A stretch of 64,000 nucleotides of DNA from a virus. The notes under the pieces were generated by a model that was given only the letters and a program-made list of their open reading frames with translations, was not told where the DNA came from and did no database searches. The stretch is from IMG/VR virus record IMGVR_UViG_3300046318_000491, positions 32,001-96,000 of that record. The stretch is one strand, 5' to 3'. Positions 981 through 43,012 of the stretch are shown here, piece after piece (the first letter of the stretch is position 1; every line of letters begins with the position of its first letter). The position numbers and the translations under genes are program-made.

Positions 981-1295
981 TTATAGCATTTTAGCGATAT
1001 TGCGAGTGCGAAGGCGTCGCATCATACGCCGACGGTCCATTTGAGTCATGCCTCCCCAGATACCCTGTAAATCAAGGCGCTCTAGCGCAAAGCCAGCGCA
1101 TTCCAGCTTATAAGGGCATTCAGCACAGATTGCTTTAGCCTCTCGCTCATTGGAGTAATACTCGAACTTAGCGATTATGGCATCAGAATGATCGACAGGG
1201 AAAAATATATCCGGGTCTGTTTGACTGCATAAAGGGTCACCATTGTCTGTAAAGTTAGGGAAACCCTCTAAGTATCCAATGCTATCAAAATCCAT
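981..1295 (-). CDS. whiB: WhiB-family Fe-S transcription factor
   Basis: C...DPDIFFP...AKAICAECPYKLEC...GIWGG...RRR: four Cys, the G[IV]WGG turn and a basic tail. Confidence 0.93.
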   Translation of the reverse strand: MDFDSIGYLEGFPNFTDNGDPLCSQTDPDIFFPVDHSDAIIAKFEYYSNEREAKAICAECPYKLECAGFALERLDLQGIWGGMTQMDRRRMMRRLRTRNIAKML

Positions 1296-18300: not shown

Positions 18301-18384
18301 ACACTTACCATCGTTGTAACTAACCTATCAACAGCTACCGCGTCATTTAGCGGTCGTCTAGCATGGACAGAGGCACAGGCATAA
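15346..18384 (+). CDS. Large virion structural protein with repeated HG[FL]..G..[VI].[VI].G domains
   Basis: 1012 aa, Thr/Ser/Gly-rich, inside the fibre operon; three such repeats plus RQTRRYFRYQSGKG and IDYSWYGAG. Confidence 0.7.
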   Translation: MSIQQFPASDGRFNPTEILTDPVNKLRTSTAQALIDTDFEYGTQQSKWENLGVTNNRPFAAPSATAIPNVSAITMSTNARIVTVTLTTTTATVTNALSATPVTGYVEYTTSAAHGFSTGQYVTISGSSVSGYNGTFLIYSTPTTTTFAVANSATGIETWSSGQAVSGVAPVTGTAVNVQDTFLAAANGNFLIESGGGTGSFTYLGRAQNKTTVTDILDPNKTSIYVANLYTNAKIGDAPTLSVSGSNLKVTVTTTVPHGLSIGNTIAVTGVTGTNPPNGSYRVATVSTPTTFVYYADPTEGNPASLTTTNAAIYVRPQAQFLHRAFDGGVLFSANASSNYEAAIRQTRRYFRYQSGKGLQISSGTIFKPYATIDGITSSGTTATVTTKEQHNIQPGTSILVSGANETPYNGVFTVAEITGFNTFTYEMETSAAGPATGIVNLNVNSWYGSSNRLGQFDAQNGVFWEFDGQGLYAVKRSSTQQLSGRSTVTQGSNVVTRTSASFPTSYSSQLIPGDYVVIRGQSYRVTAVDDISATPNFTISPSYRAASASHVSISKTIDTRIPQSEFNLDKVDGTGPSGYTVDLTKMQMFYIDYSWYGAGFIRWGLRGEDGNVFYVHKMKNNNVNNEAYMRSGNLPARYESSTLPPTTRVDASLSDTDTTMTVLDTSAFPTAGTLVIRPSTTDNQAGLLHEYVNYTGKTATTFTGLTRGGAGATSVASTWTIGSNTGTVASASGLQIGQRVFSSTSPSPVPDGAFITGISGTVITLNTAITGSNPTLIFAPMGATAQTYTHVDTAPTSVELAFPSFAPSISHWGTSVIMDGRFDDDASLIFTYGQTGTVSIPANASKALFSIRLAPSVDNGISANFGQREIINRMQLKMNSLGVTTTSASTNYLVRAYLNAVPSAGVTWTTPNFYETGTANSSLAQIADYRANGNVTVSGGEITGGFLSQGTDSIELNRLRDLGNCILGGGGTTSNSGIYPDGPDTLTIVVTNLSTATASFSGRLAWTEAQA

Positions 18385-19241
18385 TGGCTATTAATTTTCC
18401 TGCAGAACCAGAAGTAGGAGATGTTTACTCCTATAACAATCGTTCTTGGACATGGTCCGGCGAAGTTTGGACTCCTAACCGCCCGCAGTACACCGCAGAT
18501 CGAGACATCATTTCAGATGCCGATGGGTACCTTGTAGCTGCCACCACCACGTCAACCGAAATTGGTTACGTGGCTGGTGTCACCTCATCTGTGCAGGACC
18601 AGCTCGATGATAAGGCTCCTTTAGCTAGTCCAACACTTACCGGCGCACCTACAGCTCCGACTGCAACTGCAGATCAGACTGATACGCAGATTGCTACTAC
18701 GGCTTTTGTAATTGGCCAGGCTTCCTCATCGACACCAGCTGCTAACGGGACAGCTGCAACTGGAACTTCAAAGAAATATGCTCGTGCAGACCACGTTCAC
18801 GCAACTGACACCACTCTTGCACCTAAGGCAGCTCCTACTTTTACGGGTGTTGTCACAGTGGCTGCTGATGGAATTGCCTTCACTGACGGGACCCAAACTA
18901 AGCAGGGCGTGCCATCTTTAACTACAATCAAGGCAGCGATTACCGCTAATGCAACTACATCTACGCTAAGCAATGCACTAACCTACCGCGACTCTTTAGT
19001 CCCAATAGCGGGAGCCTGGTCGGTTACCATTGATGCGGATACCACTAACTCAATCACTTTCCCGATTGGGACCTCGATTGATTTCTATCAGAGCTCCGGT
19101 ACCGGAGCTAGCTTTGTGCAAGGCGCTGGTGTAACCCTACTTAAAACTCCGGGTCTAAACTTCCGCACTACTTACTCATCTGCTACAATAACCAAGGTTG
19201 CTAACAACACTTGGCTTGTGTACGGCGACTTATCAGCTTAA
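18384..19241 (+). CDS. Short fibre-like structural protein
   Basis: Start moved to ATG 18384 (TAATG overlap). KAPLASPTLTGAPTAPT...TQIATTAFV fibre repeat; C-terminal FPIGT...W.V.GDL domain. Confidence 0.7.
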   Translation: MAINFPAEPEVGDVYSYNNRSWTWSGEVWTPNRPQYTADRDIISDADGYLVAATTTSTEIGYVAGVTSSVQDQLDDKAPLASPTLTGAPTAPTATADQTDTQIATTAFVIGQASSSTPAANGTAATGTSKKYARADHVHATDTTLAPKAAPTFTGVVTVAADGIAFTDGTQTKQGVPSLTTIKAAITANATTSTLSNALTYRDSLVPIAGAWSVTIDADTTNSITFPIGTSIDFYQSSGTGASFVQGAGVTLLKTPGLNFRTTYSSATITKVANNTWLVYGDLSA

Positions 19242-19266: not shown

Positions 19267-20628
19267 ATGAGCAAAAGAACTGGTAGACACTCCGCGCAGC
19301 AAAACGACTTTTTGCAGCCTAGTGCCGTAACTATAACTAACGCATATAACGTTGGCACTAACCGCCCGTATCTATTGACTGCCACTGGCACTAATGGTCA
19401 GGGTGGCGCTGTTGCACTAGTATGGACTCTACCGGGAGACTCACCTGCTGCTCTTAGCTATGACATAACATCTAGCCCAGCTACAGTCACAAAAAATACC
19501 ACTAGCCTACCAACAGGTGGATCTCCTTTTATTTTTGAAGGTCTAGCATCTGGTGTTTCATATACCTTTACTGTAATTGCAAAGAATAATGCTGGCAGCT
19601 CTCTGCCGACAACATCAGGATCAGTGGCTGTATCAACAGTTCCCGCAGCTCCAAGTGCCCCTACAGTACGAAGTGTCACAAACGAGCAGATTGACTATGT
19701 AACCATCACAGCTCCTTCAGCTAATGGTGGTTCTAATATTCTTGCAACCGCAGGCTATTCCTGGGAGAGCAATGATGGTAAATCAGGCAACCGTGACGCA
19801 ACTGGAGAATTTGCTGTTGGTCAGGAAGCAAATACATCTCAGCAATATCGAGTTAAAGCTAATAACTCCAACGGATCATCAGATTGGTCTGCCTATTCTG
19901 GTGCCGTAACCACCCCCCCTTACTTTCCTCCATACTTTCCACCTTACTTCCCTCCGTTCTTCCCTTACTTCCCTCCATACTTCCCACCTTACTTCCCACC
20001 GTTCTTCCCTTACTTCCCTCCGTTCTTCCCTTACTTCCCACCGTTCTTCCCGTTCTTCCCGTTCTTCCCACCGTTCTTCCCTTACTTCCCTCCGTTCTTC
20101 CCTTACTTCCCACCGTTCTTCCCGTTCTTCCCACCTCGCTTCGGATGTATTGAAGCAGAGACTTTGATCGAGACAGCCAACGGTCCTGTAGCGGCTAAGG
20201 ACTTGAAGGTAGGAGACACTATCCTCTCAATGTCACTAGAAGAGCTAGGCGCTGAGCAGATGACTCCTATCGAGTTCACTATCGGAGATAGCTTGACTTT
20301 CGGAGCTGAAGGCTTGGTTGACACTACAATCACCGCGATTGTAGAAAGTGTAAAGACTGGAATTGTCTACTTCAACGGCAAGAAGGAGTCTCGCTACTCT
20401 AGCCAGCAGCCAGTGTTTATTAAGTCAAACGGCGAATTCCACGTTCGTATGGCTGGAAACCTAGTAATTGGCGACACTCTAGTTCAGGTAAATGCCGATG
20501 GCACATACCAGGAAGAGATGATTACCGAGACAACCGTGCTACACGGCGAGTTCACCGTCTACCAGTTCACATGTTCCCCGCACCACTGGTTCATTGCTGG
20601 TGGGTATCTAGTCCACAACAAGCTCTAA
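19267..20628 (+). CDS. FN3-domain protein with Pro/Phe/Tyr repeat tract and C-terminal Hint domain
   Basis: FN3 motifs (GLASGVSYTFTVIAKNNAG; YRVKANNSNGSSDWS). Repeat tract at aa 217-292. Hint runs from G|CIEAETLI..ANG...KDLKVGD to VYQF....HHWFIAGGYLVHN, then KL-stop. Confidence 0.9.
   Translation: MSKRTGRHSAQQNDFLQPSAVTITNAYNVGTNRPYLLTATGTNGQGGAVALVWTLPGDSPAALSYDITSSPATVTKNTTSLPTGGSPFIFEGLASGVSYTFTVIAKNNAGSSLPTTSGSVAVSTVPAAPSAPTVRSVTNEQIDYVTITAPSANGGSNILATAGYSWESNDGKSGNRDATGEFAVGQEANTSQQYRVKANNSNGSSDWSAYSGAVTTPPYFPPYFPPYFPPFFPYFPPYFPPYFPPFFPYFPPFFPYFPPFFPFFPFFPPFFPYFPPFFPYFPPFFPFFPPRFGCIEAETLIETANGPVAAKDLKVGDTILSMSLEELGAEQMTPIEFTIGDSLTFGAEGLVDTTITAIVESVKTGIVYFNGKKESRYSSQQPVFIKSNGEFHVRMAGNLVIGDTLVQVNADGTYQEEMITETTVLHGEFTVYQFTCSPHHWFIAGGYLVHNKL
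19915..20142 (+). repeat. 21 tandem (P)PYF/(P)PFF units (76 aa; pyrimidine-rich 9/12-bp DNA repeats)
   Basis: PPYF x5, PPFF x7, PYF x5, PFF x3, PPRF x1, read directly from the translation. Confidence 0.95.
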
Positions 20629-20637
20629 AAATAAAAG

Positions 20638-20667
20638 AATAAGGCCCTACGGGGCCTTATTTTTTTT
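20638..20667 (+). terminator. Intrinsic terminator after the Hint-domain gene
   Basis: AATAAGGCCC-TACG-GGGCCTTATT followed by a T run. Confidence 0.9.
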
Positions 20668-20729
20668 GCCAAATTATACTATTAGTGCTAGACTCATTTA
20701 AGCCAGAGTAAAACCGACATGGGAGAATA

Positions 20730-21482
20730 ATGGATTCCAACCAAGGACAAAATGATTGGTTCACTAAAGACCGATCAGAAACAGCTAGTAATAGATCAGC
20801 TGATCGCCAGCTAGGGCCAATAAAGGTAGCAAATCCAGCCCTCGGCATCAATGTGTATAGCGGAGCCATAACTAAAGAGCAGGGTCAAGCATACATCCAA
20901 ATCTTAGAGTCTAAGCTGAACGGTCAAACCAGATACGAATGGCAGGGCGCACGAGTTACTTCATCTGATGAAGTCGCTCTATACGCCCGTAATGCCTTGG
21001 ACTTTAAAGTTAGTTCTAACAATCTAGGACTTAAAGACGCTGATAACGCGGAGCTTTATGACATTCACGAGCGAATATTTCAAGCGATTCGCCGCTGTGT
21101 AGACGACTACGGACGCATCTGGGGAGTCGGCATTGCGTCCTACGAGTCCTTCAACTTTGTAAAATATGACGGTCCTGGAACCCACTTCAAGATCCATGCT
21201 GACCACGGGCCTACTTACGTATGCACTATCTCAGTTTGCGTATATCTAAATGACGACTACGAAGGCGGGGAAATCCATTTCCCTAGGTTTGATGGCCTAA
21301 CTATTAAGCCAAAGGCCGGAGATATTGTAGTATTCCCCTCGACCTATATCTATGAACATGCATCTTTAGATATGGTTAGTGGCATTAAGTATGCAGTAGT
21401 AGTCATGACTGACTACAATGATCGTGATGGCGTGAACCATCGAGTATCGCCTACAATTCAAGCATACGAGCTTAAGTACTAA
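20730..21482 (+). CDS. 2OG-Fe(II) oxygenase, prolyl-4-hydroxylase-like (1 of 10)
   Basis: HADH, YLNDDYEGGEIHF, PKAGDIVVFPS..YEH, G.KY. Confidence 0.9.
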   Translation: MDSNQGQNDWFTKDRSETASNRSADRQLGPIKVANPALGINVYSGAITKEQGQAYIQILESKLNGQTRYEWQGARVTSSDEVALYARNALDFKVSSNNLGLKDADNAELYDIHERIFQAIRRCVDDYGRIWGVGIASYESFNFVKYDGPGTHFKIHADHGPTYVCTISVCVYLNDDYEGGEIHFPRFDGLTIKPKAGDIVVFPSTYIYEHASLDMVSGIKYAVVVMTDYNDRDGVNHRVSPTIQAYELKY

Positions 21483-21483
21483 A

Positions 21484-22056
21484 TTGAGCAATAACATTAA
21501 GGTCTACGAGAATTTTGTTTCTGCGCAGGAAATAGATTTTCTACTGAGCTTTTTTATTGACTACAGTGATAACTTCGAGCTGATAAATAACTCAGTGAAT
21601 CTACTTGGATTTGGTCAAGACAATTTCCCAGCCTCCTCCCTGTTCAATAATCCTAATAGTTTTTCGGACATTCTTCCTCAGGAAAAAATTAAGTTTATAC
21701 AGGACTACTACAAACGTGTAGAAACTACAGTGGGCTCCGATATTGCTAAAGACATAAGCATGTCAGCACTATGGTTTGTGAAAACTATGGAAGGCGGGTT
21801 TCCGGAGCACGGCGATAATGAACCAGACGCCATCTATCAGTACGAGCAGACATGTATTTTATATCTAAACGACTGCGAGAATGGTGGAGAAATAGTGCTC
21901 CCGGAGTTCGACTACAGCTTTTTACCAAAAGCGGGATCCTTACTATCATTCCCAGCAAATTACGTACATGCAGTTCTACCCGTGTCTCACCCGAGGTATA
22001 CGATGCCTAGCTGGCTTACCGAGAATAAGGCATATTCTTTAGACAATTACGTATAA
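21484..22056 (+). CDS. 2OG-Fe(II) oxygenase (2 of 10)
   Basis: HGD, YLNDCENGGEI, PKAGSLLSFP..YVH.V..V..PRY. Confidence 0.85.
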   Translation: MSNNIKVYENFVSAQEIDFLLSFFIDYSDNFELINNSVNLLGFGQDNFPASSLFNNPNSFSDILPQEKIKFIQDYYKRVETTVGSDIAKDISMSALWFVKTMEGGFPEHGDNEPDAIYQYEQTCILYLNDCENGGEIVLPEFDYSFLPKAGSLLSFPANYVHAVLPVSHPRYTMPSWLTENKAYSLDNYV

Positions 22057-22151
22057 ATACCAGGTATTTAGTGAATAATTTTTAGTTTTAGTGTAGAGTT
22101 AAGCCATAAATAGGTTTAACCTATAGCTGACCATAGCGATAGAAGGAACAT

Positions 22152-22901
22152 ATGGAACCGGAACACATTAGCGGGCCTGATGAAGAAATGCAAAAGCAGA
22201 TGGACGATCACAATGTCCGCCTTAAGGCTTGGTACACCATAGATGAGCAAACTTGGAGTTCTGCCGAAGAGGTATCCCCTGGAACCGGCATATGGGTTTA
22301 TCATGATGTTCTACCAAAGAGCCTAAATATCATTGACCGTTTAGAGAATGTTTTGAATGATGAAACTAACTCATACAACTACGCTGATGCAATGGTGGGA
22401 TACGGCATTAAGATGCCGGAATATCGAGACTGCTTCGATTTTAAATACAAGAAAAGCGATATTGCAGAGGATCAAAGTGAAGCAGGGCTAGCCCTTCACT
22501 CTTTAGCCGACGACACTTACTCCCGCCAGGTGCAAGCTGTAAAGCACTACACAAAGCACTACAATATCGGCGAACTACGCTACTGGGAAGCAACTAACTA
22601 CATTAAGTACGGCCCGGGTCAGCATTTCCAGGAACACCATGACCACGGGTTCTCTTACAACTGCGTAGTCTCTATTGTAGCTTTCCCTAATGATGATTAC
22701 GAAGGCGGGGAATTATACTTCCGACTACATAATGTAACCATTAAGCCAAAGGCTGGTGACATCTACGTATTCCCTTCAAACTTTATGTATCCACACCGGG
22801 CTATGCCTGTCAAGTCTGGTACAAAGTATTCAATGGTTACAATGCTCGACTACTCGGATAAGTATCACAAGCCGGGATTCTATGAAGAAACTGGAAGTTA
22901 A
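22152..22901 (+). CDS. 2OG-Fe(II) oxygenase (3 of 10)
   Basis: HHDH, NDDYEGGELYF, PKAGDIYVFPS..YPH, GTKY. Confidence 0.9.
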   Translation: MEPEHISGPDEEMQKQMDDHNVRLKAWYTIDEQTWSSAEEVSPGTGIWVYHDVLPKSLNIIDRLENVLNDETNSYNYADAMVGYGIKMPEYRDCFDFKYKKSDIAEDQSEAGLALHSLADDTYSRQVQAVKHYTKHYNIGELRYWEATNYIKYGPGQHFQEHHDHGFSYNCVVSIVAFPNDDYEGGELYFRLHNVTIKPKAGDIYVFPSNFMYPHRAMPVKSGTKYSMVTMLDYSDKYHKPGFYEETGS

Positions 22902-23656
22902 TGAGTTCGATTAAGGTCTACAAAGGCTACCCAAACACTGCCACAGTAGCGCCGCTACCGGCAGCCCGCGACTGGATGGATAAGTCTCATGACAAGCACG
23001 CCTACATGTGCTTCCCAATGGCACTAACCAACCGTCTTGGCTGGGGCATTTCATTCCCTGAAGATATTGTTTTTATCTGGGATGGCATTGATGATACGAC
23101 TCCAGACCACGTTAAGGTTTTAAAGGGTCAAGAGTGGGCAAACTCAAAGCGCGGTAACGCCACGCTTAGCTTCGAGACAGGTCTTATTTTTAAGACAGAC
23201 CCAGACGTGACGTTGTTAACTATGCCCGTCCCAAACCAGTTCATTGCTGGTACACAGTGTTTTACCACTCTGATCAGTACGTCGTTCTATATGCCACCGC
23301 TTCCAATTGCCTGGAAGCTGACAGAGGCTAACAAAGAAATTACAATCCCCGCTGGTACGCCTGTTGCAGCACTGCTCCCTATTTCACTAGGCCACCTAGA
23401 GAATGATTACGTTATGGAGCTTAACAAGGAGATCTTAGACAACTCGTACTGGCAGGAGTTGCAGAAATACGGTGATGCAGCTCAGGCTAAAAATGCAATA
23501 GGCGACTGGTCCAAGATGTACCGAGACGCCGTTGACTACAAAGGAGATAAAGTGGGAGCCCACGAAACTAAATCAATCAAGCTTAAGACTGTGACATGCC
23601 CGTTCACCGGTCAAACCTATGAAGTAGAGGATGACTCGGTTGAGCCTAACGAATAA
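22901..23656 (+). CDS. DUF6065-like protein
   Basis: RDWMD...HAYMCFPM...N.LGW...WDG and IPAGTPVAALLP motifs. Confidence 0.65.
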   Translation: MSSIKVYKGYPNTATVAPLPAARDWMDKSHDKHAYMCFPMALTNRLGWGISFPEDIVFIWDGIDDTTPDHVKVLKGQEWANSKRGNATLSFETGLIFKTDPDVTLLTMPVPNQFIAGTQCFTTLISTSFYMPPLPIAWKLTEANKEITIPAGTPVAALLPISLGHLENDYVMELNKEILDNSYWQELQKYGDAAQAKNAIGDWSKMYRDAVDYKGDKVGAHETKSIKLKTVTCPFTGQTYEVEDDSVEPNE

Positions 23657-24380
23657 GATTAAGTTTGTCATGAATAGGCCTTGGCTGACAAAAGACAGTC
23701 CGTCAGCACCAGGGCCAACCATTAAAACTATTCCTGACTGGTATCGCAAGGCGGATAGATTTGCTATTAATCCCCACACTAACGAGCCCTGGATCAATCC
23801 TCAGGATGGCGGAAAGGTCCCTACTTGGAAGGCTTGTCCAGCAGTCTTTGACATCATGGGAACCGGATACGTCTACAAGACCCCGTGCGATGTAGAAGTT
23901 TACGAAGAAAATGGCGAGATCAAGATCAAGATAGAAGATCAGTACAACAAGGATTTTGTTGGAGATCGCATGCCTATGCCTCAGTTTGTTCCGCCTCAGG
24001 GGTACCACGAAAAGCACTTTGCATGGTGGTCTGACTGGGCAGTAGTACTGCCAGAAGGGTATAGTGCTCTGTATACTCAACCATTTAATAGGTTTGAGCT
24101 GCCATTTCTAACAACCAGCGGTATTATTGACAATGATAAGGTCCACCTTCCTGGAACTATGCCCTTTTTTATTGTCAAGGGATTTACAGGGGTAATCCCG
24201 GCAGGAACTCCTTATGCTCAGATTCTCCCTTTTAAGCGTGAAGACTGGACATCAGAACTACAGACAAACATCAGCTACGAGCAGATGATGAAGAACAACA
24301 TGGAAAACAGTAATAAATATCGAGTACCTAATGGTGGCGTCTACCAGAAGGAAGTATGGACTCGCCGAGTCTACGAGTAA
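23631..24380 (+). CDS. Conserved phage protein, DUF6065-related
   Basis: IPDWY...TWKACPAVFD...GY...P.D, PEGYSALYTQP.NR, SGIIDND and IPAGTPYAQILPFKRE. Start uncertain. Confidence 0.55.
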   Translation: MTRLSLTNKIKFVMNRPWLTKDSPSAPGPTIKTIPDWYRKADRFAINPHTNEPWINPQDGGKVPTWKACPAVFDIMGTGYVYKTPCDVEVYEENGEIKIKIEDQYNKDFVGDRMPMPQFVPPQGYHEKHFAWWSDWAVVLPEGYSALYTQPFNRFELPFLTTSGIIDNDKVHLPGTMPFFIVKGFTGVIPAGTPYAQILPFKREDWTSELQTNISYEQMMKNNMENSNKYRVPNGGVYQKEVWTRRVYE

Positions 24381-24394
24381 GGTAGGATAGCAAT

Positions 24395-25069
24395 ATGACC
24401 GAACAAGAATTAGCTAACAGCCACCGCGGAGCACCTCGCGTCTCTATCACCCCTTCGGGGTATTATGGTGATTCACCGGACAATATTGTCACACTAGAAA
24501 ACTTCATGACTGAAGAAGAGATCGTGGCTCTAGATACTTTTATCCGTAGTAACACGGAGTGGGACGTCACTGAAACTCACTATAACGAAGAGGGTACAGT
24601 AATTTATGACTCGGATTACTGGAAGGATCGAGTAGCAACTTACACGACTATCGATCGGGTAGACCCAGAAATCCCTGCAATTATTGAGGGTATGGTCGAG
24701 CGACTAAAGGTAGAAGTAGATAAATTTTTTAAGGTAGATGCTATGCCTACCAGTCCAGCATTGGTCCGCTGGCTTCCGGGAATGCTGCAGCAGCCTCACG
24801 CTGATAAAGAGCTGCACCAAGGAAACGATAGAGGCAAGCCAAATGACTTTCCATACTATGACCTAGCAGGCCTTTTTTATATCAATGATGACTATGAGGG
24901 GGGCGAGTTGTATTTCCCTAATCAAGGGATTCAGTTTAAGCCTAAGCGCGGAGCTGCCTACTTCTTTCCTGGAGATTTAAATTATATTCATGGTGTAACC
25001 GAGATTACCTCTGGAACTAGATATACTTGCCCATTTTTCTGGACAATTGTAAAGCATGTCGACGCTTGA
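24395..25069 (+). CDS. 2OG-Fe(II) oxygenase (4 of 10)
   Basis: HAD, YINDDYEGGELYF, YIHGV..I.SGTRY. Confidence 0.9.
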   Translation: MTEQELANSHRGAPRVSITPSGYYGDSPDNIVTLENFMTEEEIVALDTFIRSNTEWDVTETHYNEEGTVIYDSDYWKDRVATYTTIDRVDPEIPAIIEGMVERLKVEVDKFFKVDAMPTSPALVRWLPGMLQQPHADKELHQGNDRGKPNDFPYYDLAGLFYINDDYEGGELYFPNQGIQFKPKRGAAYFFPGDLNYIHGVTEITSGTRYTCPFFWTIVKHVDA

Positions 25070-25688
25070 ACCATATGAGATAGCCCCCCTGGTTTTTGTA
25101 TATCCAGGGGTCTATAAAGACGCGCCCACTCTAGTAGATGCACTAGAAAATGGACCAAAAGGGATCAACTACTCGATTTACGACTGGGAGCCATGGGAAG
25201 GTAGAGGCAAGCATGCCACTATAAACCCAGGGCTGCAAGTCAAACTAGAAGAAGACGACAATGTTTTTGATGCGGTCAGATCTTTCGTTTCGGCGTATGA
25301 TGAAATTTTTGCTGATTATATTTCTAGAAAAAACATACAATTAAGCGGTCCAGTGATGTCTAATATTGCATGCAATTATTATGAAGAGGGAGCATCCATG
25401 GGGTTTCATACCGATTCCGATCCTGAAGACGAGCAAGCTCCTTACTACTCCATTACAGTAAATTGCTACCTAAATGATGACTACGAGGGCGGAGACTTAG
25501 TCTTTAACCTCTCTACTGAAGAAAACGCAGAGACTGTTAGATACACACCAAAAGCTGGCGACTTTGTTGTCATCCCCGCCTCACCGCCATATTTACACAA
25601 ATCTGAAAAAATTATCTCTGGTAAAAAGTATTTTTCGCACCGAGTAGTGACTGAAGATAAAAAGCCAATATGGCAGTTAGGAGTCTAG
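25056..25688 (+). CDS. 2OG-Fe(II) oxygenase (5 of 10)
   Basis: HTD, YLNDDYEGGDL, PKAGDFVVIP..PYLH, SGKKY. Confidence 0.88.
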   Translation: MSTLEPYEIAPLVFVYPGVYKDAPTLVDALENGPKGINYSIYDWEPWEGRGKHATINPGLQVKLEEDDNVFDAVRSFVSAYDEIFADYISRKNIQLSGPVMSNIACNYYEEGASMGFHTDSDPEDEQAPYYSITVNCYLNDDYEGGDLVFNLSTEENAETVRYTPKAGDFVVIPASPPYLHKSEKIISGKKYFSHRVVTEDKKPIWQLGV

Positions 25689-26453
25689 GTGGATATCAAG
25701 GTTTTATATCCAAAGATCCATATCTACAGTGGACTTCTTGGTGACTCTCAGGAGTTAATAGCCACCCTACGCGACGTATACGATTGGAGCGGTTGGTATA
25801 CTTTTGGAGATCTAGCAGTAGTGCAGATAGATCGTCGAAATTTTGATACGTTTCCCTCGCGTGAAGACTGGGACCTGGTAGAGCAATCTATTGAAAAGCC
25901 AAACGCAGCTGCCTCTTCTATTATCAATGCTTTCTACAGTGCCACTAGCCACTATGTAGATGTCAACAACGTTAGCCCAGTTAGCTGGAACTTTAACTCT
26001 CCAGCTGTCTGCATGTATAACACTAATGCCGGGGCGTCTGAAGACGTTGCTATGCACTACCACACTGACTTCCAGCAAGAAAAAAGAGATGAACCAGGGT
26101 TTAAGCCTTACATCACCTGCACTATGTACCTAAATGACGATTATGAAGGTGGAGAGATCGAGTTTAAAGTACTACAGTCAGATGGCTCATTCGATCGCGT
26201 CTCATATAAGCCAAAAGCAGGGGATATTTTAGTTTTCCCTTCCGATGAACCGTACTACCACGGAGTAAATCTAACCACCAAGGGTAAAAAGTACTTTGTA
26301 CGGTCTTTCTGGGACTACTACTTCCCGGGAACTGAAGAGTGGCACGAGGGTTTAAAAACCTACGGAGAAGAGACTTGGCTTAAAATGGAACAGGATCGCG
26401 AAAAAGCCGAAAGAACTACTGGACGCTACAACCTAATGAATAGGGGTAACTAA
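25689..26453 (+). CDS. 2OG-Fe(II) oxygenase (6 of 10)
   Basis: MHYHTD, MYLNDDYEGGEI, PYYHGV, KGKKY. Confidence 0.88.
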   Translation: MDIKVLYPKIHIYSGLLGDSQELIATLRDVYDWSGWYTFGDLAVVQIDRRNFDTFPSREDWDLVEQSIEKPNAAASSIINAFYSATSHYVDVNNVSPVSWNFNSPAVCMYNTNAGASEDVAMHYHTDFQQEKRDEPGFKPYITCTMYLNDDYEGGEIEFKVLQSDGSFDRVSYKPKAGDILVFPSDEPYYHGVNLTTKGKKYFVRSFWDYYFPGTEEWHEGLKTYGEETWLKMEQDREKAERTTGRYNLMNRGN

Positions 26454-27178
26454 TGTTTGATTCAATAGACGCCTCTACCTTTATTTACTACAAAGATGAA
26501 GAGAATACTCTTTCTAAACTAGGCGTTACTAAGAACAGAATTGTTGAAGTCCCTAACTTCATAGACGCTGATACTGCTAAAAAGTTAGTTGACTACTTTG
26601 ATAATGGCCCGGAGACCTGGGATTTTATAGCCTTCTACCATTCATACGGGATGGGCCTTAACCCCGACCCTAAGGAATTAGCTGTATTTGATCTCGATCC
26701 AAACGTATTTGACAAAATAAACGCCGGAACTAAGACTTTAGTCGAGCTCATATTCGAGCAGAGGGTTAAAGCAAATACGGCTCATGCTCAGAAATGGGTA
26801 GAAGGCGGTTTTGCAAATCCGCACTCGGACAATTCAGATGAAGATGGTAACCCCACCGCGTTTGAGATAAACAAATACGTAGCTATTTTGTACTTAAATG
26901 ATAGCTATGAAGGCGGAGAACTCTACTTCCCTGAGCACGGTCTAGAGATCAGACCAAATAAGTACTCTTTATATGTTTTACCTGGGGGGATAGAGAATAT
27001 ACATGGAGTGCGCGAGATACTTTCTGGGGAAAGGCATACCATGCTCTCTTTCTGGGACTTTGCAGACGCTGAATACTCAGAGGAGCGCAAGGCTGAATGG
27101 GCTGCCGAGCTCAAAGAAGTCAGAGCCTCACAGGCGGAGCAGCGTATAGAATGGAAGAATGGAAATAAATATGTTTAA
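26453..27178 (+). CDS. 2OG-Fe(II) oxygenase (7 of 10)
   Basis: HSD, YLNDSYEGGELYF, NIHGV..I.SGERH. Confidence 0.88.
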   Translation: MFDSIDASTFIYYKDEENTLSKLGVTKNRIVEVPNFIDADTAKKLVDYFDNGPETWDFIAFYHSYGMGLNPDPKELAVFDLDPNVFDKINAGTKTLVELIFEQRVKANTAHAQKWVEGGFANPHSDNSDEDGNPTAFEINKYVAILYLNDSYEGGELYFPEHGLEIRPNKYSLYVLPGGIENIHGVREILSGERHTMLSFWDFADAEYSEERKAEWAAELKEVRASQAEQRIEWKNGNKYV

Positions 27179-27986
27179 TTCAGAAGAACTACTGACAGAT
27201 CTGCCCACTCCAACGGAGATCTATCCGCGCATATTTGTGTACAAAGCAGCATTTAAAAACCCGCTAGAGTTTATTGAAAAAGTAAAGCAACTGCCTACAT
27301 GGCAGTCTTGGTGGACTTTCGGAGATATGGCTAGCGTCCCCGGAATCGAATATACCAAGTTTGACACTAAGCCTACCTACGAAGAGTGGGAGGCATTTAT
27401 TGCTGGATACGTGGAAGATACAAAAGGCAAGCCGGGCTGGGACTTATCTCCTTATGTAGATAAGTTATTCTACAAGGCTACAGAAGATCACATGAAGAAG
27501 TATCCTCTAGAGATACCCAACTGGTCCCACCAAAAGCCATCTATTGCAAAATACGTAGCCCTAGGCGGGGTAGATGATGACAAATACTCCATGCACTACC
27601 ACACTGACTTCCAGCGAGAAAAGGCTGATGCCCCAGGGCTTAAGTATGCCCTAACCTGTACTATGTATTTAAATGATGACTACGAGGGCGGGGAGCTTAC
27701 GTTTAAGATAGCAAACGGCTCGGGCGGTTTCGACACTATTGACTACAAGCCAGGGGCTGGCGACGTAGTGGTTTTTCCTTCGGTAGAGCCGTACTTCCAT
27801 GGAGTGAAGCAGATTACCTCGGGAGATCGATACTTTATTAGGACTTTTTGGACCAGTGAATTTGCTGGCACCCCTGAGTGGCTTGCAAATCAAGAAAAGT
27901 ATGGTAAAGAAGTTTGGGCTCAGATGGAGAAAGAGCGCGAGAGCGCCTTCAGACGCGGCGAGTCCACAGACATATACAATGATTAG
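27171..27986 (+). CDS. 2OG-Fe(II) oxygenase (8 of 10)
   Basis: MHYHTD, MYLNDDYEGGEL, PYFHGV..I.SGDRY. Start moved to ATG 27171. Confidence 0.88.
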   Translation: MFNSEELLTDLPTPTEIYPRIFVYKAAFKNPLEFIEKVKQLPTWQSWWTFGDMASVPGIEYTKFDTKPTYEEWEAFIAGYVEDTKGKPGWDLSPYVDKLFYKATEDHMKKYPLEIPNWSHQKPSIAKYVALGGVDDDKYSMHYHTDFQREKADAPGLKYALTCTMYLNDDYEGGELTFKIANGSGGFDTIDYKPGAGDVVVFPSVEPYFHGVKQITSGDRYFIRTFWTSEFAGTPEWLANQEKYGKEVWAQMEKERESAFRRGESTDIYND

Positions 27987-28026
27987 CGAGTATACTTATA
28001 TTCTAACTATTAAGAATGGGTTATAA

Positions 28027-28710
28027 ATGTTTCCAGAACCAGTATGGCTTAAGGATGACGTTGTCACGTTCCCAGGATTTTTAGATCCTGAAGAGTGCCA
28101 GAAAATTATCGACTTCTTTGAAGATCAAGGTAAAGAGTATTGGATGCAGACATGCTTCTATGACTCCCTTGGTATGGCTCTCGTCTCGGACGTTGATGCG
28201 CTAGAACGCTCGGGCCTAGAGGACATCCATAAAGACTACTTCCGCTGGCTACCAGAGCACATTCGTGCTGCAGTGGAGTTGGCATACGACCGAGGAATTA
28301 AGCTAAACAGTGCTCATGCTCAGAAGTGGCCTAAGGGCGCTTTCGCTCGCTGGCACTCAGACAGCTCGGACATTGACGGCAACCCAACCGCGTGGCGCGA
28401 CAACAAGTTTGCTAGTGTTCTTTACCTAAATGACAACTATGAAGGCGGAGAGCTAGAGTTCCGTGACCACAACCTAAGCGTAAAGCTTCCTCAGGGTAGT
28501 TTGATTGCTTTTCCAGGTGGAGTAGAGAATATCCACCGCATCAACGAAATTATGGATGGCACAAGATTCACCATCGTAGGTTTCTGGGACTACATCGACT
28601 CTGTCTATACAGAAGAAGAATTGGCTCAACGCGAGGCCGAAATCGCTTATGAGCGAACTCGCCAGGATGAGCAAAAGCGCCAGTGGGCTGCCGGTAATAA
28701 AAACGCCTAA
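28027..28710 (+). CDS. 2OG-Fe(II) oxygenase (9 of 10)
   Basis: HSD, YLNDNYEGGEL, NIHRI..I.DGTRF. Confidence 0.88.
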   Translation: MFPEPVWLKDDVVTFPGFLDPEECQKIIDFFEDQGKEYWMQTCFYDSLGMALVSDVDALERSGLEDIHKDYFRWLPEHIRAAVELAYDRGIKLNSAHAQKWPKGAFARWHSDSSDIDGNPTAWRDNKFASVLYLNDNYEGGELEFRDHNLSVKLPQGSLIAFPGGVENIHRINEIMDGTRFTIVGFWDYIDSVYTEEELAQREAEIAYERTRQDEQKRQWAAGNKNA

Positions 28711-28726
28711 TTAGCTTGGGAGAGCC

Positions 28727-29416
28727 ATGATTGATGAATCAAGAGTAACAATTTACGCTGATCGCATCTTCTATTTCGAGGGGATTTTAGACAACCCGGA
28801 GTATGCGATTAATATGCATCAAGTCATGGATGAGATGCTTAACTCAGATACGGGTGAAGTTTTTCACAAGCTGGTGCCTTGGCAGACCTCTGACGCAGTT
28901 CCTCACGTCTATGGGACAAAGCGTATGACCACACGCGAAAACTTAGAATCTACATCAAATCAAGAAGTTAAAGATTTTTATATAAAAGTAGATTCAATAT
29001 TTGACGAAGCGGGCAGATATTATTTTGAAAAGCTAGGGCTAGACTACCAAAACGGTAAGTTAATGACTGACTATGCAATGTTTCATTACAACACCGGCCA
29101 AGAGATGGGACCTCATGTTGATGACAACTACGAGCCTCTAGTTGATCCAATTTGTACTGGTCTAATTTACCTAAATGACGATAAAGACGGTGGAGACCTT
29201 TGGTTTCCAGAGCAAGACGTTCTAATAAAGGCAGTGCCTGGGAGCATGGTAATTTTTCCATGCGTTAAGCCTTTCTTCCATGCATCTACTAAGTTAAAGC
29301 AAGGTATCAAATACCACATTGGAACTGGATGGAAGCGTCATCGAACCCCCGCGGAGATAGAAGCATTAGGGCCAGACTATGGAGCCGATGCTCACCGTGG
29401 TATGGCAATGGAGTAA
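28727..29416 (+). CDS. 2OG-Fe(II) oxygenase (10 of 10)
   Basis: MGPHVD, YLNDDKDGGDLWF, PFFHAS....GIKY. Confidence 0.88.
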   Translation: MIDESRVTIYADRIFYFEGILDNPEYAINMHQVMDEMLNSDTGEVFHKLVPWQTSDAVPHVYGTKRMTTRENLESTSNQEVKDFYIKVDSIFDEAGRYYFEKLGLDYQNGKLMTDYAMFHYNTGQEMGPHVDDNYEPLVDPICTGLIYLNDDKDGGDLWFPEQDVLIKAVPGSMVIFPCVKPFFHASTKLKQGIKYHIGTGWKRHRTPAEIEALGPDYGADAHRGMAME

Positions 29417-29504: not shown

Positions 29505-33793
<4,289 letters not shown>

Positions 33794-33800
33794 GTAAGTA

Positions 33801-34658
33801 ATGGCTACGTATACGCAGGCCTTTTCAGGCAGATCATCGCTGATTTTAAGGTACATCGTAACCGAGACCTCAACGAATACTACTGCTTATACAACTACTG
33901 TTTCATGGTCCTTGGCTATAACGGCTGCCGGAAATACTTCTACAGCATTTAACACTGGAAATACCGCGGCATGGACTATTGACGTAGATGCAAGCGGAAG
34001 CACTCCTATATCTTCCGGTACCTATAACTATGACTTCCGAGCCCCTAATACAACCACAACAAAAAGTATCTCTAGCGGTACAAAAACAATTAACAGAAAT
34101 GGCCCTGGGTCATATACGACGGTACTTTACGCTACTGCCGATGGTGGTACTGGTGGTGTAATTGGTAGCGCGACTATCAACTCATCTTTGGCACTTACAA
34201 CTATTGACGTGCCACCACCTTACTTCCCTCCATACTTCCCACCTTACTTCCCACCGTTCTTCCCTTACTTCCCTCCGTTCTTCCCTTACTTCCCTCCATA
34301 CTTCCCACCTTACTTCCCTCCAACTGCGGACGTACCTAACGTTACAGGTCAGTCCCTAGCCACGGCTCAAGGCAACATAGAAGCCAGCAGTTTTGTCTAT
34401 GCATTAGGTACTAGCCCAGTTTCCACAAATACCGCATCTAACGTTGGATTGGTTTCATCTTACTCTCCTACCGGCACACAGGTGGTTGGAACTACCGTGA
34501 CTGTACAGACCTATTACTACAACGAGCCGGGGTCTAGAATCGATGACTCAGGATCACCAGTTAAAGTCACTACAGCTAAGCGTTTTGATGGTACTAACTG
34601 GGTAGATGTCACCACTAGGCAGCGTTTTGATGGTACTAACTGGGTAGTCATAGAATAG
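33801..34658 (+). CDS. Structural protein with a second PPYF repeat tract and a PASTA-like domain
   Basis: Beta-rich N-terminus; 37-aa PPYF/PPFF tract; VPNVTGQSLATAQ..I...F...GLVSSYSP.G..V.GTTVTV (PASTA pattern); duplicated RFDGTNWV at the end. Confidence 0.75.
   Translation: MATYTQAFSGRSSLILRYIVTETSTNTTAYTTTVSWSLAITAAGNTSTAFNTGNTAAWTIDVDASGSTPISSGTYNYDFRAPNTTTTKSISSGTKTINRNGPGSYTTVLYATADGGTGGVIGSATINSSLALTTIDVPPPYFPPYFPPYFPPFFPYFPPFFPYFPPYFPPYFPPTADVPNVTGQSLATAQGNIEASSFVYALGTSPVSTNTASNVGLVSSYSPTGTQVVGTTVTVQTYYYNEPGSRIDDSGSPVKVTTAKRFDGTNWVDVTTRQRFDGTNWVVIE
34212..34322 (+). repeat. Second (P)PYF/PPFF tract (37 aa)
   Basis: 34218-34294 is identical over 77 bp to 19963-20039. Confidence 0.95.
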
Positions 34659-41502: not shown

Positions 41503-42570
41503 GTGAAGGTTGCAGTTTACACAATTGCTCTTAATGAAGAAAAGCATGTAGAACGTTGGTATAACTCTATAAAAGATGCAGACTACATTCTTATCGCTGA
41601 TACAGGATCTACGGATAAGACTGTAGAGATCGCTAAAAGCCTTGGAATCAATGTAGTAAACGTCCTCATAAAGCCATTTCGTTTTGACACTAGTCGTACA
41701 GCAGCTCTTGCTGCACTTCCTGCGGACATCGACTATTGCATTTCGTTAGACATGGACGAGGTCTTGACTGAAGGGTGGCGTCAAGATATCGAAACACTAG
41801 CCCCTCTAGAGCCGACCCAATCAGCAATCCTGAGAAGCACGCTAACCTGGAACTTTAGAGAAGACGGCACCCCCGGGCTACAATATGGCGCGGACCGTAT
41901 ACACTCTCGCTGGGGCGTTATGTGGCGTCAGCCAGCTCACGAAATTATTGGTACCTACGGTGAGTATAAAGAAGTACGTGGCACTGTCGGTTTTGGAATT
42001 CATCATTTAGCGGATGCCACTAAGTCCCGTGGGCAGTATATGGCGATGCTGAAAATGGCGGTAGACGAGAATCCATATAGCGATAGAAACGCCTTCTACT
42101 ACGCCAGAGAGCTCTATTTTTACGGTTTGTATAAGGAAGCTGCTAAAGAGTTTAAACGCCACCTAGAGCTTCCTACGGCCATATGGAAGCCAGAGAGAGC
42201 TGCCTCTCTACGCTACCTATCTATCTGTGAACCAGATAGTGCCGAGACTCACCTCGTTAAGGCCGTAGCAACGGACCCAAGCCGACGAGAGCCTAAGGTT
42301 GCACTTGCGCAGGAGTTCTATAAGAAGGAAGACTGGGAAAACTGCTACAAATGGTCGGTATCAGCCTTAGAAATCGAGAATAAGCCACTTGACTATATGT
42401 GCGAAGAGTTTGCATGGGACCACACACCCTTGGACCTTGCCGCGTTGGCTGCATACAACCTAGGTAAGTTTGAAGAAGCTCGTGAGTATGGCGCTAGGGC
42501 TGTAGAAATAAACCCAACAGATAATCGACTAATTGCTAATCTTCGTTGGTACTCTTCGGTGACTTCCTAG
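41503..42570 (+). CDS. GT2 glycosyltransferase with C-terminal TPR repeats
   Basis: IALNEEK, DTGSTDKT, F.FD.SR.AAL, SLDMDE and HE motifs; TPR-like helices. Confidence 0.9.
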   Translation: MKVAVYTIALNEEKHVERWYNSIKDADYILIADTGSTDKTVEIAKSLGINVVNVLIKPFRFDTSRTAALAALPADIDYCISLDMDEVLTEGWRQDIETLAPLEPTQSAILRSTLTWNFREDGTPGLQYGADRIHSRWGVMWRQPAHEIIGTYGEYKEVRGTVGFGIHHLADATKSRGQYMAMLKMAVDENPYSDRNAFYYARELYFYGLYKEAAKEFKRHLELPTAIWKPERAASLRYLSICEPDSAETHLVKAVATDPSRREPKVALAQEFYKKEDWENCYKWSVSALEIENKPLDYMCEEFAWDHTPLDLAALAAYNLGKFEEAREYGARAVEINPTDNRLIANLRWYSSVTS

Positions 42571-43012
42571 TTTTCTGAGCGTGAAAAGCTTCTACTGCAT
42601 TTGCACTAGTTCTACTCTGCCAGTTAAATCCACAATCAGTACACTTTACCATTTTCATGGTTGACCAGCGACCCTTACTAGGTCGCTCTACTGTTTCTGT
42701 AACTAAAGAATCTGTCTTGCTCTTGCAGTAAGGACATAGTGGAAAACGTTTATGACGCATCTCTTGTCCCTCCCAGTTCACTGAAAGAGTTCTACGAATC
42801 TGTTCCGGAGTTAGCCCACCCCAGATTCCCCAAATTTGCTTATTCTCCAGTGCCCACTTAGTGCATTCTGCCCTAACAGGGCATGCGTCACATAATTTTT
42901 TTGCATCCAATTGCTGAGACGGCTTATTAGCAAAGAACGTCTCTAAGTAGACTCTATTTTTTGGCTTAGAGCATTCAGAATTTTCATGCCATTCAGGGGA
43001 TGATTCTATCAA
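42536..43012 (-). CDS. whiB: Second WhiB-family protein with C-terminal zinc ribbon
   Basis: W...SEC...FF...AKKLCDACPVRAEC..WAL...GIWGG, then CPYC...CTDC. Confidence 0.88.
   Translation of the reverse strand: MIESSPEWHENSECSKPKNRVYLETFFANKPSQQLDAKKLCDACPVRAECTKWALENKQIWGIWGGLTPEQIRRTLSVNWEGQEMRHKRFPLCPYCKSKTDSLVTETVERPSKGRWSTMKMVKCTDCGFNWQSRTSANAVEAFHAQKTRKSPKSTNED

Follow-up and report, generated by a model that had tools for sequence, protein, structure and literature searches.

The collagen- and extensin-type prolyl 4-hydroxylases (P4Hs) of bacteria and algae act on proline-rich peptides of the polyproline-II type. P4H-type 2OG oxygenases are also among the most abundant 'auxiliary' genes of aquatic viromes. 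Their use by phages has been called cryptic (PMC9301287), and proposals for the cyanophage oxygenases have been limited to DNA repair or 2OG handling (PMC3037559). In the chlorovirus PBCV-1, the likely P4H substrates are the virus's own Pro-rich repeats (Eriksson et al. 1999, as cited in PMC9301287).

We investigated a phage locus in which a gene encoding a Pro/aromatic tract adjoins an array of P4H-type oxygenases, a module of which we found no published description. The tract linkers of the fibre region may be the substrate of this co-conserved cassette in freshwater phages, a reading to which we give even chances. The evidence is wholly comparative, and every locus comes from one phage group. 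Because the candidate substrate is a conserved protein encoded by the phages themselves, the role of the oxygenases can be tested directly.

Layout of the tract gene and its cassette

The window studied is a stretch of 64,000 nt (positions 32,001-96,000) of the IMG/VR record IMGVR_UViG_3300046318_000491, a genome of 154 kb. Its source is an uncultured lake phage, within a large set of uncultured freshwater phages whose hosts are probably actinobacteria; two WhiB genes in the genome indicate an actinobacterial host. The tract gene is followed in the same orientation by 12 genes (20730-29416), consisting of ten P4H-like 2OG-Fe(II) oxygenases, one DUF6065 gene and one remote DUF6065 paralogue. 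Phrog tail-fibre matches identify fibre genes on both sides of this block, bearing out a preliminary description that had placed the array between two fibre blocks. The features are as follows.

18363-19241, + strand: tail-fibre-like gene (phrog tail-fibre matches), which always precedes the tract gene
19267-20628, + strand: tract gene, FN3 / FN3-like / Pro-Tyr-Phe tract / Hint protein of 453 aa (translation, Pfam, model)
19915-20145, + strand: DNA coding the (P)P[YF]F tract, ~20 units, end PPRF-G
20146-20628, + strand: predicted Hint (bacterial intein-like) domain (alignment, AlphaFold model, Foldseek)
20638-20667, + strand: intrinsic-terminator-like hairpin (20638-20661) and T run, kept only in the nearest relatives
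20730-21482, + strand: P4H-like 2OG-Fe(II) oxygenase, optional group o1, found where the tract has single-Pro units
21484-22056, + strand: P4H-like oxygenase, rare group o2; no Pfam match, triad aligns
22152-22901, + strand: P4H-like oxygenase, core group o3
22901-23656, + strand: DUF6065 protein, predicted dUTPase-like fold (PF19541, E 8e-31, 107.7 bits against a cut-off of 26.6)
23631-24380, + strand: remote DUF6065 paralogue (hhalign, phrog_7084)
24395-25069, + strand: P4H-like oxygenase, core group o4, single copy, the most conserved of the groups
25056-25688 and 25689-26453, + strand: two P4H-like oxygenases, core group o5/6/8
26453-27178, + strand: P4H-like oxygenase, core group o7/9
27159-27986, + strand: P4H-like oxygenase, group o5/6/8
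28027-28710, + strand: P4H-like oxygenase, group o7/9
28727-29416, + strand: P4H-like oxygenase, core group o10
33801-34658, + strand: second tract protein, with an N-terminal domain, (PPYF/PPFF/PYF) x9 and a PASTA domain (E 9.5e-7, above cut-off)

The translated tail-fibre-like product ends in ...PGLNFRTTYSSATITKVANNTWLVYGDLSA, a C-terminal motif that recurs in the gene upstream of the tract gene at related loci. The tract-gene product itself contains, after an N-terminal region, an FN3 domain at residues 42-115 (Pfam fn3, E 1.2e-6, above cut-off), and FN3-like motifs at residues ~120-215, a region called only FN3-like because it has no Pfam match. The tract that follows comprises 78 residues, all P, Y or F except one R, arranged as PPYF, PPFF, PYF or PFF units, after which come a Cys and a 160-aa domain. 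The FN3-FN3-tract-Hint order first reported is confirmed, with the second domain given as FN3-like. Judged from its sequence, the product is a multi-domain virion-type protein rather than a precursor peptide.

The C-terminal 160-aa domain is modelled as a Hint fold. The Pfam family Hint_2 matches it weakly, below cut-off (E 0.007; 17.2 against 28.4 bits), and Foldseek comparison of its AlphaFold model (pLDDT 92) retrieves bacterial intein-like domains, BIL2, mini-inteins and Hedgehog Hog domains (best 2lwy, E 1.9e-8, TM 0.69/0.80). Position 1 is Cys or Ser in all 33 aligned homologues, and is here a Cys after Gly. The block-B TxxH motif reads SSQQ in this protein, with Gln in place of His, a His that ~12/33 Hint relatives have and that is Gln or Glu in the others; Hint cleavage in this phage may therefore be slow or absent. 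The protein lacks the C-terminus of a splicing intein, ending HN-K-L-stop without a C-extein, and the C-terminal Asn is missing from many relatives, whose last residues are ...IA or ...HK.

Between the tract gene and the array, a promoter-like site (20666-20694) follows the terminator-like hairpin and T run. A terminator in this position was found at 8/61 loci; most relatives have gaps of 17-90 nt with no terminator, so that co-transcription of tract gene and array is likely in most of them. The terminator that had led the preliminary description to call the link positional is thus present here, but is limited to this lineage.

We identified only two tract genes in the 154-kb genome, both flanking the array. 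They have in common an identical 72-nt stretch (19966-20037 = 34221-34292), and DNA-level homogenisation can thus explain the likeness of the tracts without shared modification. Pro/aromatic tracts also occur as internal linkers in other large proteins, and PPYF, PPFF, PFF, FFxPPx and other types are present in the fibre- or adhesin-type proteins of these phages; the tract is a general linker module. The PASTA domains present in tract proteins were counted in favour of cell-wall binding.

Nine of the ten oxygenases match PF13640 above its cut-off of 27 bits, with scores of 29-51. In the tenth (21484-22056), the HxD...H, NDxxxGG and K/R columns align with those of the other nine, and its score against a paralogue HMM (9e-46) is partly circular, because the HMM was built from all ten sequences including its own. 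The HxD...H triad and the basic residue for the 2OG C5 carboxylate are invariant in all ten, as first described, and of 527 oxygenase ORFs, 524, 524, 523 and 525 (~99%) retain the His, Asp, His and Lys/Arg, respectively. The best solved relatives of the oxygenase profile are the B. anthracis P4H (4e-12), PiuC, P3H1, the PBCV-1 P4H and the Chlamydomonas P4H, and o4, the most conserved member, has the same ones; it matches Tet_JBP weakly (E 3.5e-4, below cut-off). These matches mark the enzymes as prolyl-hydroxylase-type, in agreement with the preliminary description, which named an oxygenase class that includes prolyl-4-hydroxylases, and make them putative peptidyl-proline hydroxylases by sequence kinship.

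The core of the array consists of five collinear ortholog groups (group support 0.79-1.0) and the DUF6065 pair, an ancient, non-redundant set and not a recent expansion; the cassette in the window's phage genome has ten oxygenases, expanded from this core of five. Seven more P4H-like genes lie elsewhere in the same genome, far from any tract, and the gene family comprises >1,500 sequence clusters in lake metagenomes.

For the DUF6065 pair, the model of the 22901-23656 product (pLDDT 89) resembles dUTPase 5y5o (VIA Z 10.5, rmsd 2.6 over 116 aa), placing DUF6065 in a dUTPase-like fold on structural modelling and ruling out the pair as tailoring oxygenases. The product of 23631-24380 fails Pfam DUF6065, and is linked to it by hhalign (probability 86%, E 4.9e-6) and by a match of both genes to phrog_7084. 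By eye, its 'GIIDNDK' and 'AQII' resemble dUTPase motifs III and IV. Neither the DUF6065 proteins nor the profile of the remote paralogue matched a dUTPase sequence in the Protein Data Bank. A canonical dUTPase is encoded elsewhere in the same genome, and DUF6065 relatives in haloarchaeal viruses and a cyanophage adjoin thymidylate synthase and DNA polymerase, or ribonucleotide reductase.

Pairing of tracts and oxygenases across related phages

Loci were collected from three starts: the Hint domain, the oxygenases and the tract. Oxygenases lay downstream at 11/13 Hint-anchored loci. A tract gene was found upstream of the array at all 47 oxygenase-anchored loci having at least 1.5 kb upstream, one apparent exception having been resolved. 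Finally, 34 of the 41 tract-anchored genes had an oxygenase no more than 5 kb downstream; 7/41 had none nearby, and four fragments that carry tract genes were without any oxygenase. The FN3-tract protein, with or without Hint, was always the last in the fibre block, immediately before the cassette. The Hint domain is optional, with about half of the upstream tract genes lacking it and stopping a few residues past the tract. Thus, the association of Hint-ended repeat genes with oxygenase arrays anticipated in the preliminary description holds for the tract from all three starts but for Hint in only about half of cases, and Hint processing, which it had made part of the system, falls outside the conserved core.

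The pairing extends to divergent, Pro-poor lineages, in which the minimal pair is one tract gene and one oxygenase. Lineages with FGFTP or GAF tracts (L004/5, L012, L104) and PASTA or other N-termini have a single oxygenase directly after the tract gene, and the GAF tract of L012 contains zero prolines. In L050, a second tract-Hint gene adjoins extra oxygenases, while L028 and L095 carry inserts exactly at the tract-array junction, comprising a sulfotransferase, an Asp/Asn beta-hydroxylase, a luciferase-like monooxygenase and a methyltransferase-like gene.

Array content, which the preliminary description proposed to compare with repeat composition, follows it in part. Pro-poor tracts are accompanied by 0-1 oxygenase and Pro-rich tracts by 5-11, and o1 accompanies single-Pro units (counts 27/0/6/30), both being lost in L036; the correlation of o1 with single-Pro units, however, involves only two changes on the o4 tree and is not significant. 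The evidence is weakened by shared descent within one phage group, as constant adjacency may reflect inherited gene order. The pairing of tract and cassette in dozens of related fragments makes the tract a testable candidate substrate.

Proposed role and competing explanations

In the explanation we favour, which taken as a whole is evenly poised between right and wrong, the cassette would be a late, structural-module set conserved across the phage group. During late infection, the oxygenases would hydroxylate tract prolines, with separate paralogues serving separate sequence contexts or ring positions. Through hydroxylation, a P/F/Y stretch that is otherwise extremely hydrophobic would become soluble and stiff, an extensin-like spacer within the appendages by which the phage attaches to the host cell wall. 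In proteins that have it, the Hint domain would remove itself by cleavage after an N-S acyl shift at the conserved Cys/Ser1, leaving a C-terminus (...PPRF-G) equal to that of the Hint-less orthologues. If true, the host-recognition appendages of phages contain spacers rich in hydroxyproline that resemble plant cell-wall material, a role is assigned to an oxygenase family with >1,500 lake-metagenome clusters, and a C-terminal Hint domain is added as a maturation device of virion proteins. Points counted against this explanation include the shared descent of the loci, the non-significant correlation of o1, the seven P4H-like genes far from any tract, the tract genes with no oxygenase nearby, the proline-free GAF tract of L012, the block-B Gln and the identical 72-nt stretch. 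In addition, ten paralogues seem a large number for a substrate of three letters, and the dUTPase-like fold of DUF6065 and the neighbours of its relatives fit a nucleotide-directed function no worse.

It is possible, although unlikely, that the adjacency is inherited gene order only, with the cassette acting on virion proteins other than the tract protein, for instance the adjacent fibres, collagen-like ones included, and the tract gene merely ending the fibre block. All loci are kin, the array lies between fibre blocks, and in this genome a terminator parts it from the tract gene. A collagen-like gene of 1307 aa offers 45 prolines at X positions; its 233 Y positions hold mainly Thr (155) and Gln (34). 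However, collagen-like ORFs (at least 12 GXY triplets) were found at only ~20/93 loci, with large ones limited to the nearest kin, and since most array loci have none, these fibres are the poorer substrate candidates, as the preliminary description had judged from the Thr/Gln at their Y positions. Moreover, tract-oxygenase adjacency is kept in rearranged and minimal lineages, and no other Pro-rich virion gene is conserved beside the array.

It is equally unlikely that the oxygenases and the DUF6065 pair act on a nucleotide, nucleic acid, small metabolite or host proteins, as an auxiliary or takeover module to which the tract is unrelated. Such a target would suit the dUTPase-like fold, the nucleotide-metabolism neighbours of DUF6065 relatives in other viruses, the weak Tet_JBP match of o4 and the functions proposed for cyanophages (PMC3037559), and the seven dispersed P4H-like genes of this genome must have targets other than the tract. 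Against this, the nearest solved relatives of the cassette enzymes are peptidyl-prolyl hydroxylases and PiuC, neither AlkB nor TET; the cassette is placed within the structural module and shares the strand of the fibre genes; a canonical dUTPase is encoded at another site of the genome; and the remote DUF6065 paralogue is without a dUTPase match in the Protein Data Bank.

A bolder version of the hydroxylated-tract explanation, which we consider improbable, would have the tract form a densely hydroxylated, extensin-like rod and the Hint thioester, beyond serving self-removal, join the modified appendage covalently to an amine of another virion protein or of host peptidoglycan. Joining would proceed by E1/E2-free conjugation, as in Tetrahymena BUBL domains, and in some relatives the rod might also carry sulfate or other decorations, a possibility suggested by the L028 insert. 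If true, the phage adhesin would install itself and be tailored post-translationally.

Finally, the RiPP-like logic of the preliminary description, in which the tract is a core peptide freed by Hint cleavage and diffusible or secreted, draws on a repetitive 'precursor' beside tailoring enzymes and a self-cleaving domain, but is very improbable, because the product has several domains and is of virion type, tracts also link domains inside other large proteins, Hint rather than the tract would be freed by cleavage at Cys1, with the tract staying on the FN3 domains, half of the orthologues have no Hint, and the 12 downstream genes include no protease or exporter.

Comparison with known systems

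The phage locus resembles RiPP clusters in that a repetitive substrate gene adjoins tailoring enzymes. It differs in that the candidate substrate is a 453-aa multi-domain structural-type protein, with no leader/core logic, protease or exporter seen. The T4-like cyanophage 2OG-Fe(II) oxygenases (PMC3037559) belong to the same Pfam family and occur in several copies per genome, with matches in 270 phage records, but are dispersed between auxiliary genes, in many cases on the opposite strand, with no tract gene and no collinear cassette.

The phage Hint domain has the same predicted fold as BIL domains, Tetrahymena BUBL BIL2 and Hedgehog Hog (2lwy, 6tmm/6y75, 1at0; E 1.9e-8 to 8.5e-6). Common to all are an N-terminal Cys/Ser nucleophile, a C-terminal place and no real C-extein, and cleavage or transfer of the upstream polypeptide via a (thio)ester would be expected in each. 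In contrast to these domains, the phage Hint has a block-B Gln for His and sits in a fibre-module protein.

Among solved structures, the P4Hs of B. anthracis (3itq/5hv0; E 4e-12) and Chlamydomonas (2jig; E 2e-8) are closest, with the same HxD...H and Lys/Arg, although they share little sequence identity with the phage enzymes and have unrelated N-terminal halves. The phage tract is without the X-Pro-Gly or Ser-Pro4 patterns. The PBCV-1 enzyme (5c5t), matched by the window's oxygenase profile at E 1.4e-8, is likewise a virus-encoded member of the P4H family. PBCV-1 is a eukaryotic virus with one enzyme, whose (PAPK)-type repeats are not adjacent to it, whereas in the phages described here an aromatic P/Y/F tract lies strictly adjacent to 5-10 conserved paralogues, accompanied by a DUF6065 pair and, optionally, a Hint domain.

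Pairing of tract genes with oxygenase arrays

We examined the linkage between genes encoding a Pro/aromatic repeat (tract genes; (P)P[YF]F in the window) and the oxygenase array from three sides, anchoring the comparison on the Hint domain, on the oxygenases and on the tract itself. All 13 Hint-anchored loci encoded an N-terminal domain, an aromatic low-complexity tract, a Cys or Ser and a Hint domain, and oxygenases were found downstream at 11 of them; at L010/11, where a tract-Hint gene occurs without oxygenases, a second tract gene precedes the only oxygenase of the contig. For the oxygenase-anchored set, 80 of at least 546 matches were taken, and the test was limited to the 47 loci whose upstream DNA extends for 1.5 kb or more. 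A tract gene was present upstream of the array in all 47, and lay just upstream in every locus except L028. This apparent exception was resolved with 4.5 kb more of the contig, which placed a tract-Hint gene 3.6 kb upstream, behind an insert. The insert, as seen in the related locus L095, consists of further tailoring-type enzymes, positioned exactly at the junction of tract gene and array:

L095 377-4086: sulfotransferase (PF03567); Asp/Asn beta-hydroxylase (PF05118, E 1.6e-12); luciferase-like monooxygenase (PF00296, E 1e-28); methyltransferase-like gene; second sulfotransferase-like ORF

Finally, a search with a DNA pattern for three PPFF units yielded 41 tract genes that are in frame and have 3 kb or more of sequence downstream; in 34 cases an oxygenase starts within the following 5 kb. 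The other seven are built differently, with the tract as a linker inside large proteins that are multi-domain or rich in Cys. On two of these seven contigs, six oxygenase genes occur at other positions (as an array in L114); four contigs are small fragments without any oxygenase. Thus, the co-occurrence of Hint-terminated repeat genes with oxygenase arrays, proposed in the preliminary description, was recovered from all three sides as regards the tract, but the Hint domain is present in only about half of the upstream tract genes at oxygenase-anchored loci, the remainder stopping a few residues past the tract. Arrays independent of such precursors, which would have spoken against the link, were not found among the 47 testable loci, while tract genes without a nearby oxygenase amounted to 7 of 41.

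The terminator previously noted between tract gene and array, and taken to make their link positional, is a real hairpin in the window (20638-20661), but it occurs in just 8 of 61 loci, namely the nearest kin of the window phage and a few others. The intergenic gap of most relatives measures 17-90 nt and contains no terminator, indicating that tract gene and array are likely co-transcribed in most of this phage group.

The preliminary description also asked whether array content tracks repeat composition, and this held in part. PP-rich tracts accompany 5-11 oxygenases, whereas FGFTP and GAF tracts (L004/5, L012, L104) are directly followed by a single oxygenase resembling ortholog groups o1 or o3. 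Group o1 occurs at 27 of 27 loci with at least three single-Pro units in the tract and is missing from 30 of the 36 others (raw Fisher p 4e-12). On the tree of group o4, this correlation comes down to two changes only, a deep split and the loss of both traits in L036, and is thus suggestive, not significant.

The oxygenases and the DUF6065 pair

Ten of the 12 genes 3' of the tract gene encode P4H-like 2OG oxygenases, and the HxD...H triad, NDxxxGG motif and K/R ascribed to them earlier are indeed invariant in all ten. The four catalytic positions are retained in 523-525 of 527 homologous ORFs; judged by sequence comparison, the array oxygenases are enzymes under purifying selection. Against solved structures, a profile of the paralogues matched the Bacillus anthracis P4H (4e-12), PiuC, P3H1, the PBCV-1 P4H and the Chlamydomonas P4H, and o4, the most conserved group, returned the same list on its own. 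A nucleic-acid oxygenase of TET/JBP or AlkB type was accordingly rejected, as neither AlkB nor TET appeared among these matches and a single sub-threshold Pfam hit was obtained.

The tree and group HMMs revealed a collinear core in nearly every relative (o3, DUF6065, its paralogue, o4, o5/6/8, o7/9 and o10), with o1 and o2 optional and extra duplications in some lineages, the genome containing the window having expanded to ten oxygenases. Such collinear ortholog groups rule out a recent tandem burst. This large family, in which o4 by itself accounts for 1,545 clusters, is purely environmental. We additionally identified seven further P4H-like genes outside the window, scattered in the phage genome and for the most part on the opposite strand:

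genome C1, 8590-11240
genome C1, 14184-14879
genome C1, 24893-25540
genome C1, 145780-147116

These retain an intact triad, are remote from any tract and fall outside the ortholog groups of the array, which counts against tract hydroxylation as the role of the cassette.

The remaining two array genes, described previously as DUF6065-like, are one DUF6065 gene and one remote paralogue (phrog_7084). The DUF6065 model (pLDDT 89) is not a double-stranded beta-helix but a dUTPase-like barrel (Z 10.5, rmsd 2.6 over 116 residues), and a canonical dUTPase is encoded elsewhere in the genome; the paralogue profile had no match in the Protein Data Bank.

Window 22901-24380: DUF6065 gene and paralogue
L224 6848-7738 and L225 6998-7792: paralogue relatives in the haloarchaeal-virus/cyanophage context set

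Such dUTPase-fold partners also weigh against the tract, and keep alive the alternative that the cassette targets a nucleotide, since paralogue relatives adjoin thymidylate synthase and DNA polymerase in haloarchaeal tailed viruses and follow ribonucleotide reductase in cyanophage S-RIM4, in neither case with an oxygenase array. Bacterial contexts of DUF6065 were limited to eight short MAG contigs (L096-L103), assigned to Bacteroidota, Acidimicrobiaceae, Beijerinckiaceae and Luteolibacter. As all carry the same phage cassette despite these inconsistent phyla, they are probably mis-binned phage DNA and hence not an independent context. Our literature search found no publication on DUF6065.

Tract proteins and the Hint domain

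The tract gene of the window (19267-20628) was described as FN3-FN3-tract-Hint with 21 repeat units. One FN3 domain is backed by Pfam, the second stretch being FN3-like without a Pfam match, and the tract comprises 78 residues in about 20 units of PPYF, PPFF, PYF and PFF, terminating in PPRF-G. It is followed by a Cys and a 160-residue domain in which Pfam sees Hint_2 weakly. An AlphaFold model of this domain (pLDDT 92) supports the Hint fold, matching a Clostridium thermocellum bacterial intein-like domain (E 1.9e-8, TM 0.69/0.80), Tetrahymena BUBL BIL2, mini-inteins and the Hedgehog Hog domain. Across an alignment of 33 homologues, position 1 is invariably Cys or Ser, no C-extein was found, and the block-B His is replaced by Gln in the window phage. 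The expected chemistry is thus N-terminal (thio)ester formation and cleavage rather than splicing. Hint-less orthologues (L075/L082 at about 5.2-6.2 kb, L030, L078, L022) include some with Cys-rich tails after the tract, e.g. GCSGCIRSYCWQACPGCCGSCGC, or with Cys inside the tract itself, PFFPNFCPSFCP; these features may serve as another means of C-terminal anchoring or cross-linking.

A second tract gene was identified, and the genome contains only these two, both beside the array:

33801-34658 (+): N-terminal domain, nine tract units, PASTA domain (E 9.5e-7)

A stretch of 72 nt is identical between the two tracts (19966-20037 = 34221-34292), indicating that DNA-level homogenisation occurs. Two long ORFs across the tract DNA were rejected as by-products of the low-complexity repeat:

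19859-20134 (-): long ORF, other strand
19884-20153 (+): long ORF, other frame

Genome setting and candidate substrates

The phage genome (153.7 kb, with direct terminal repeats) includes the window as its bases 32001-96000, which contain ribonucleotide reductase, a primase-polymerase and many fibre genes. As described previously, fibre genes flank the tract-gene/array block on both sides. An actinobacterial host is suggested by two WhiB genes. Neither megablast with the region nor tblastn with the tract-Hint protein detected a close relative in cultured phages; the phage's large virion protein shares about 40% identity with its T4-like cyanophage counterparts.

981-1295 (-): WhiB family (PF02467, E about 1e-19)
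42536-43012 (-): WhiB family (PF02467, E about 1e-19)
29505-29870 (+): 121-aa gene preceding the collagen-like fibre, likely a fibre chaperone (phrog_3304 'L-shaped tail fiber protein assembly', E 4e-12)
41503-42570 (+): beta-1,4-glycosyltransferase-like gene about 12 kb 3' of the array (phrog_13126, E 1e-107), possibly relevant if hydroxyprolines carry glycosylation

We give an even chance to a model in which the cassette would hydroxylate prolines in the Pro/aromatic linkers of virion appendage proteins, of which some bear peptidoglycan-binding PASTA domains, with the Hint domain as an optional, self-removing cap. Its chief weakness is that all lines of evidence are comparative and come from one phage group. 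Among the readings considered, tract hydroxylation is the best supported, ahead of other virion proteins as targets, a nucleotide or host molecule, and a RiPP-like product. The collagen-like fibre, whose Y positions are Thr or Gln as noted before and which has 45 prolines at X positions, was rejected as the main substrate because collagen-like genes are missing from most array loci.

Phage P4H and 2OG genes are of unknown use in the literature searched (PMC9301287, PMC3037559). Among the publications examined, those on bacterial intein-like and Hint domains in phages concern terminase inteins only, and the one on freshwater phages does not mention the array oxygenases. No cassette was found in cyanophage oxygenase neighbourhoods. 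The closest precedent is the chlorovirus PBCV-1, with its P4H and its own Pro-rich repeats.
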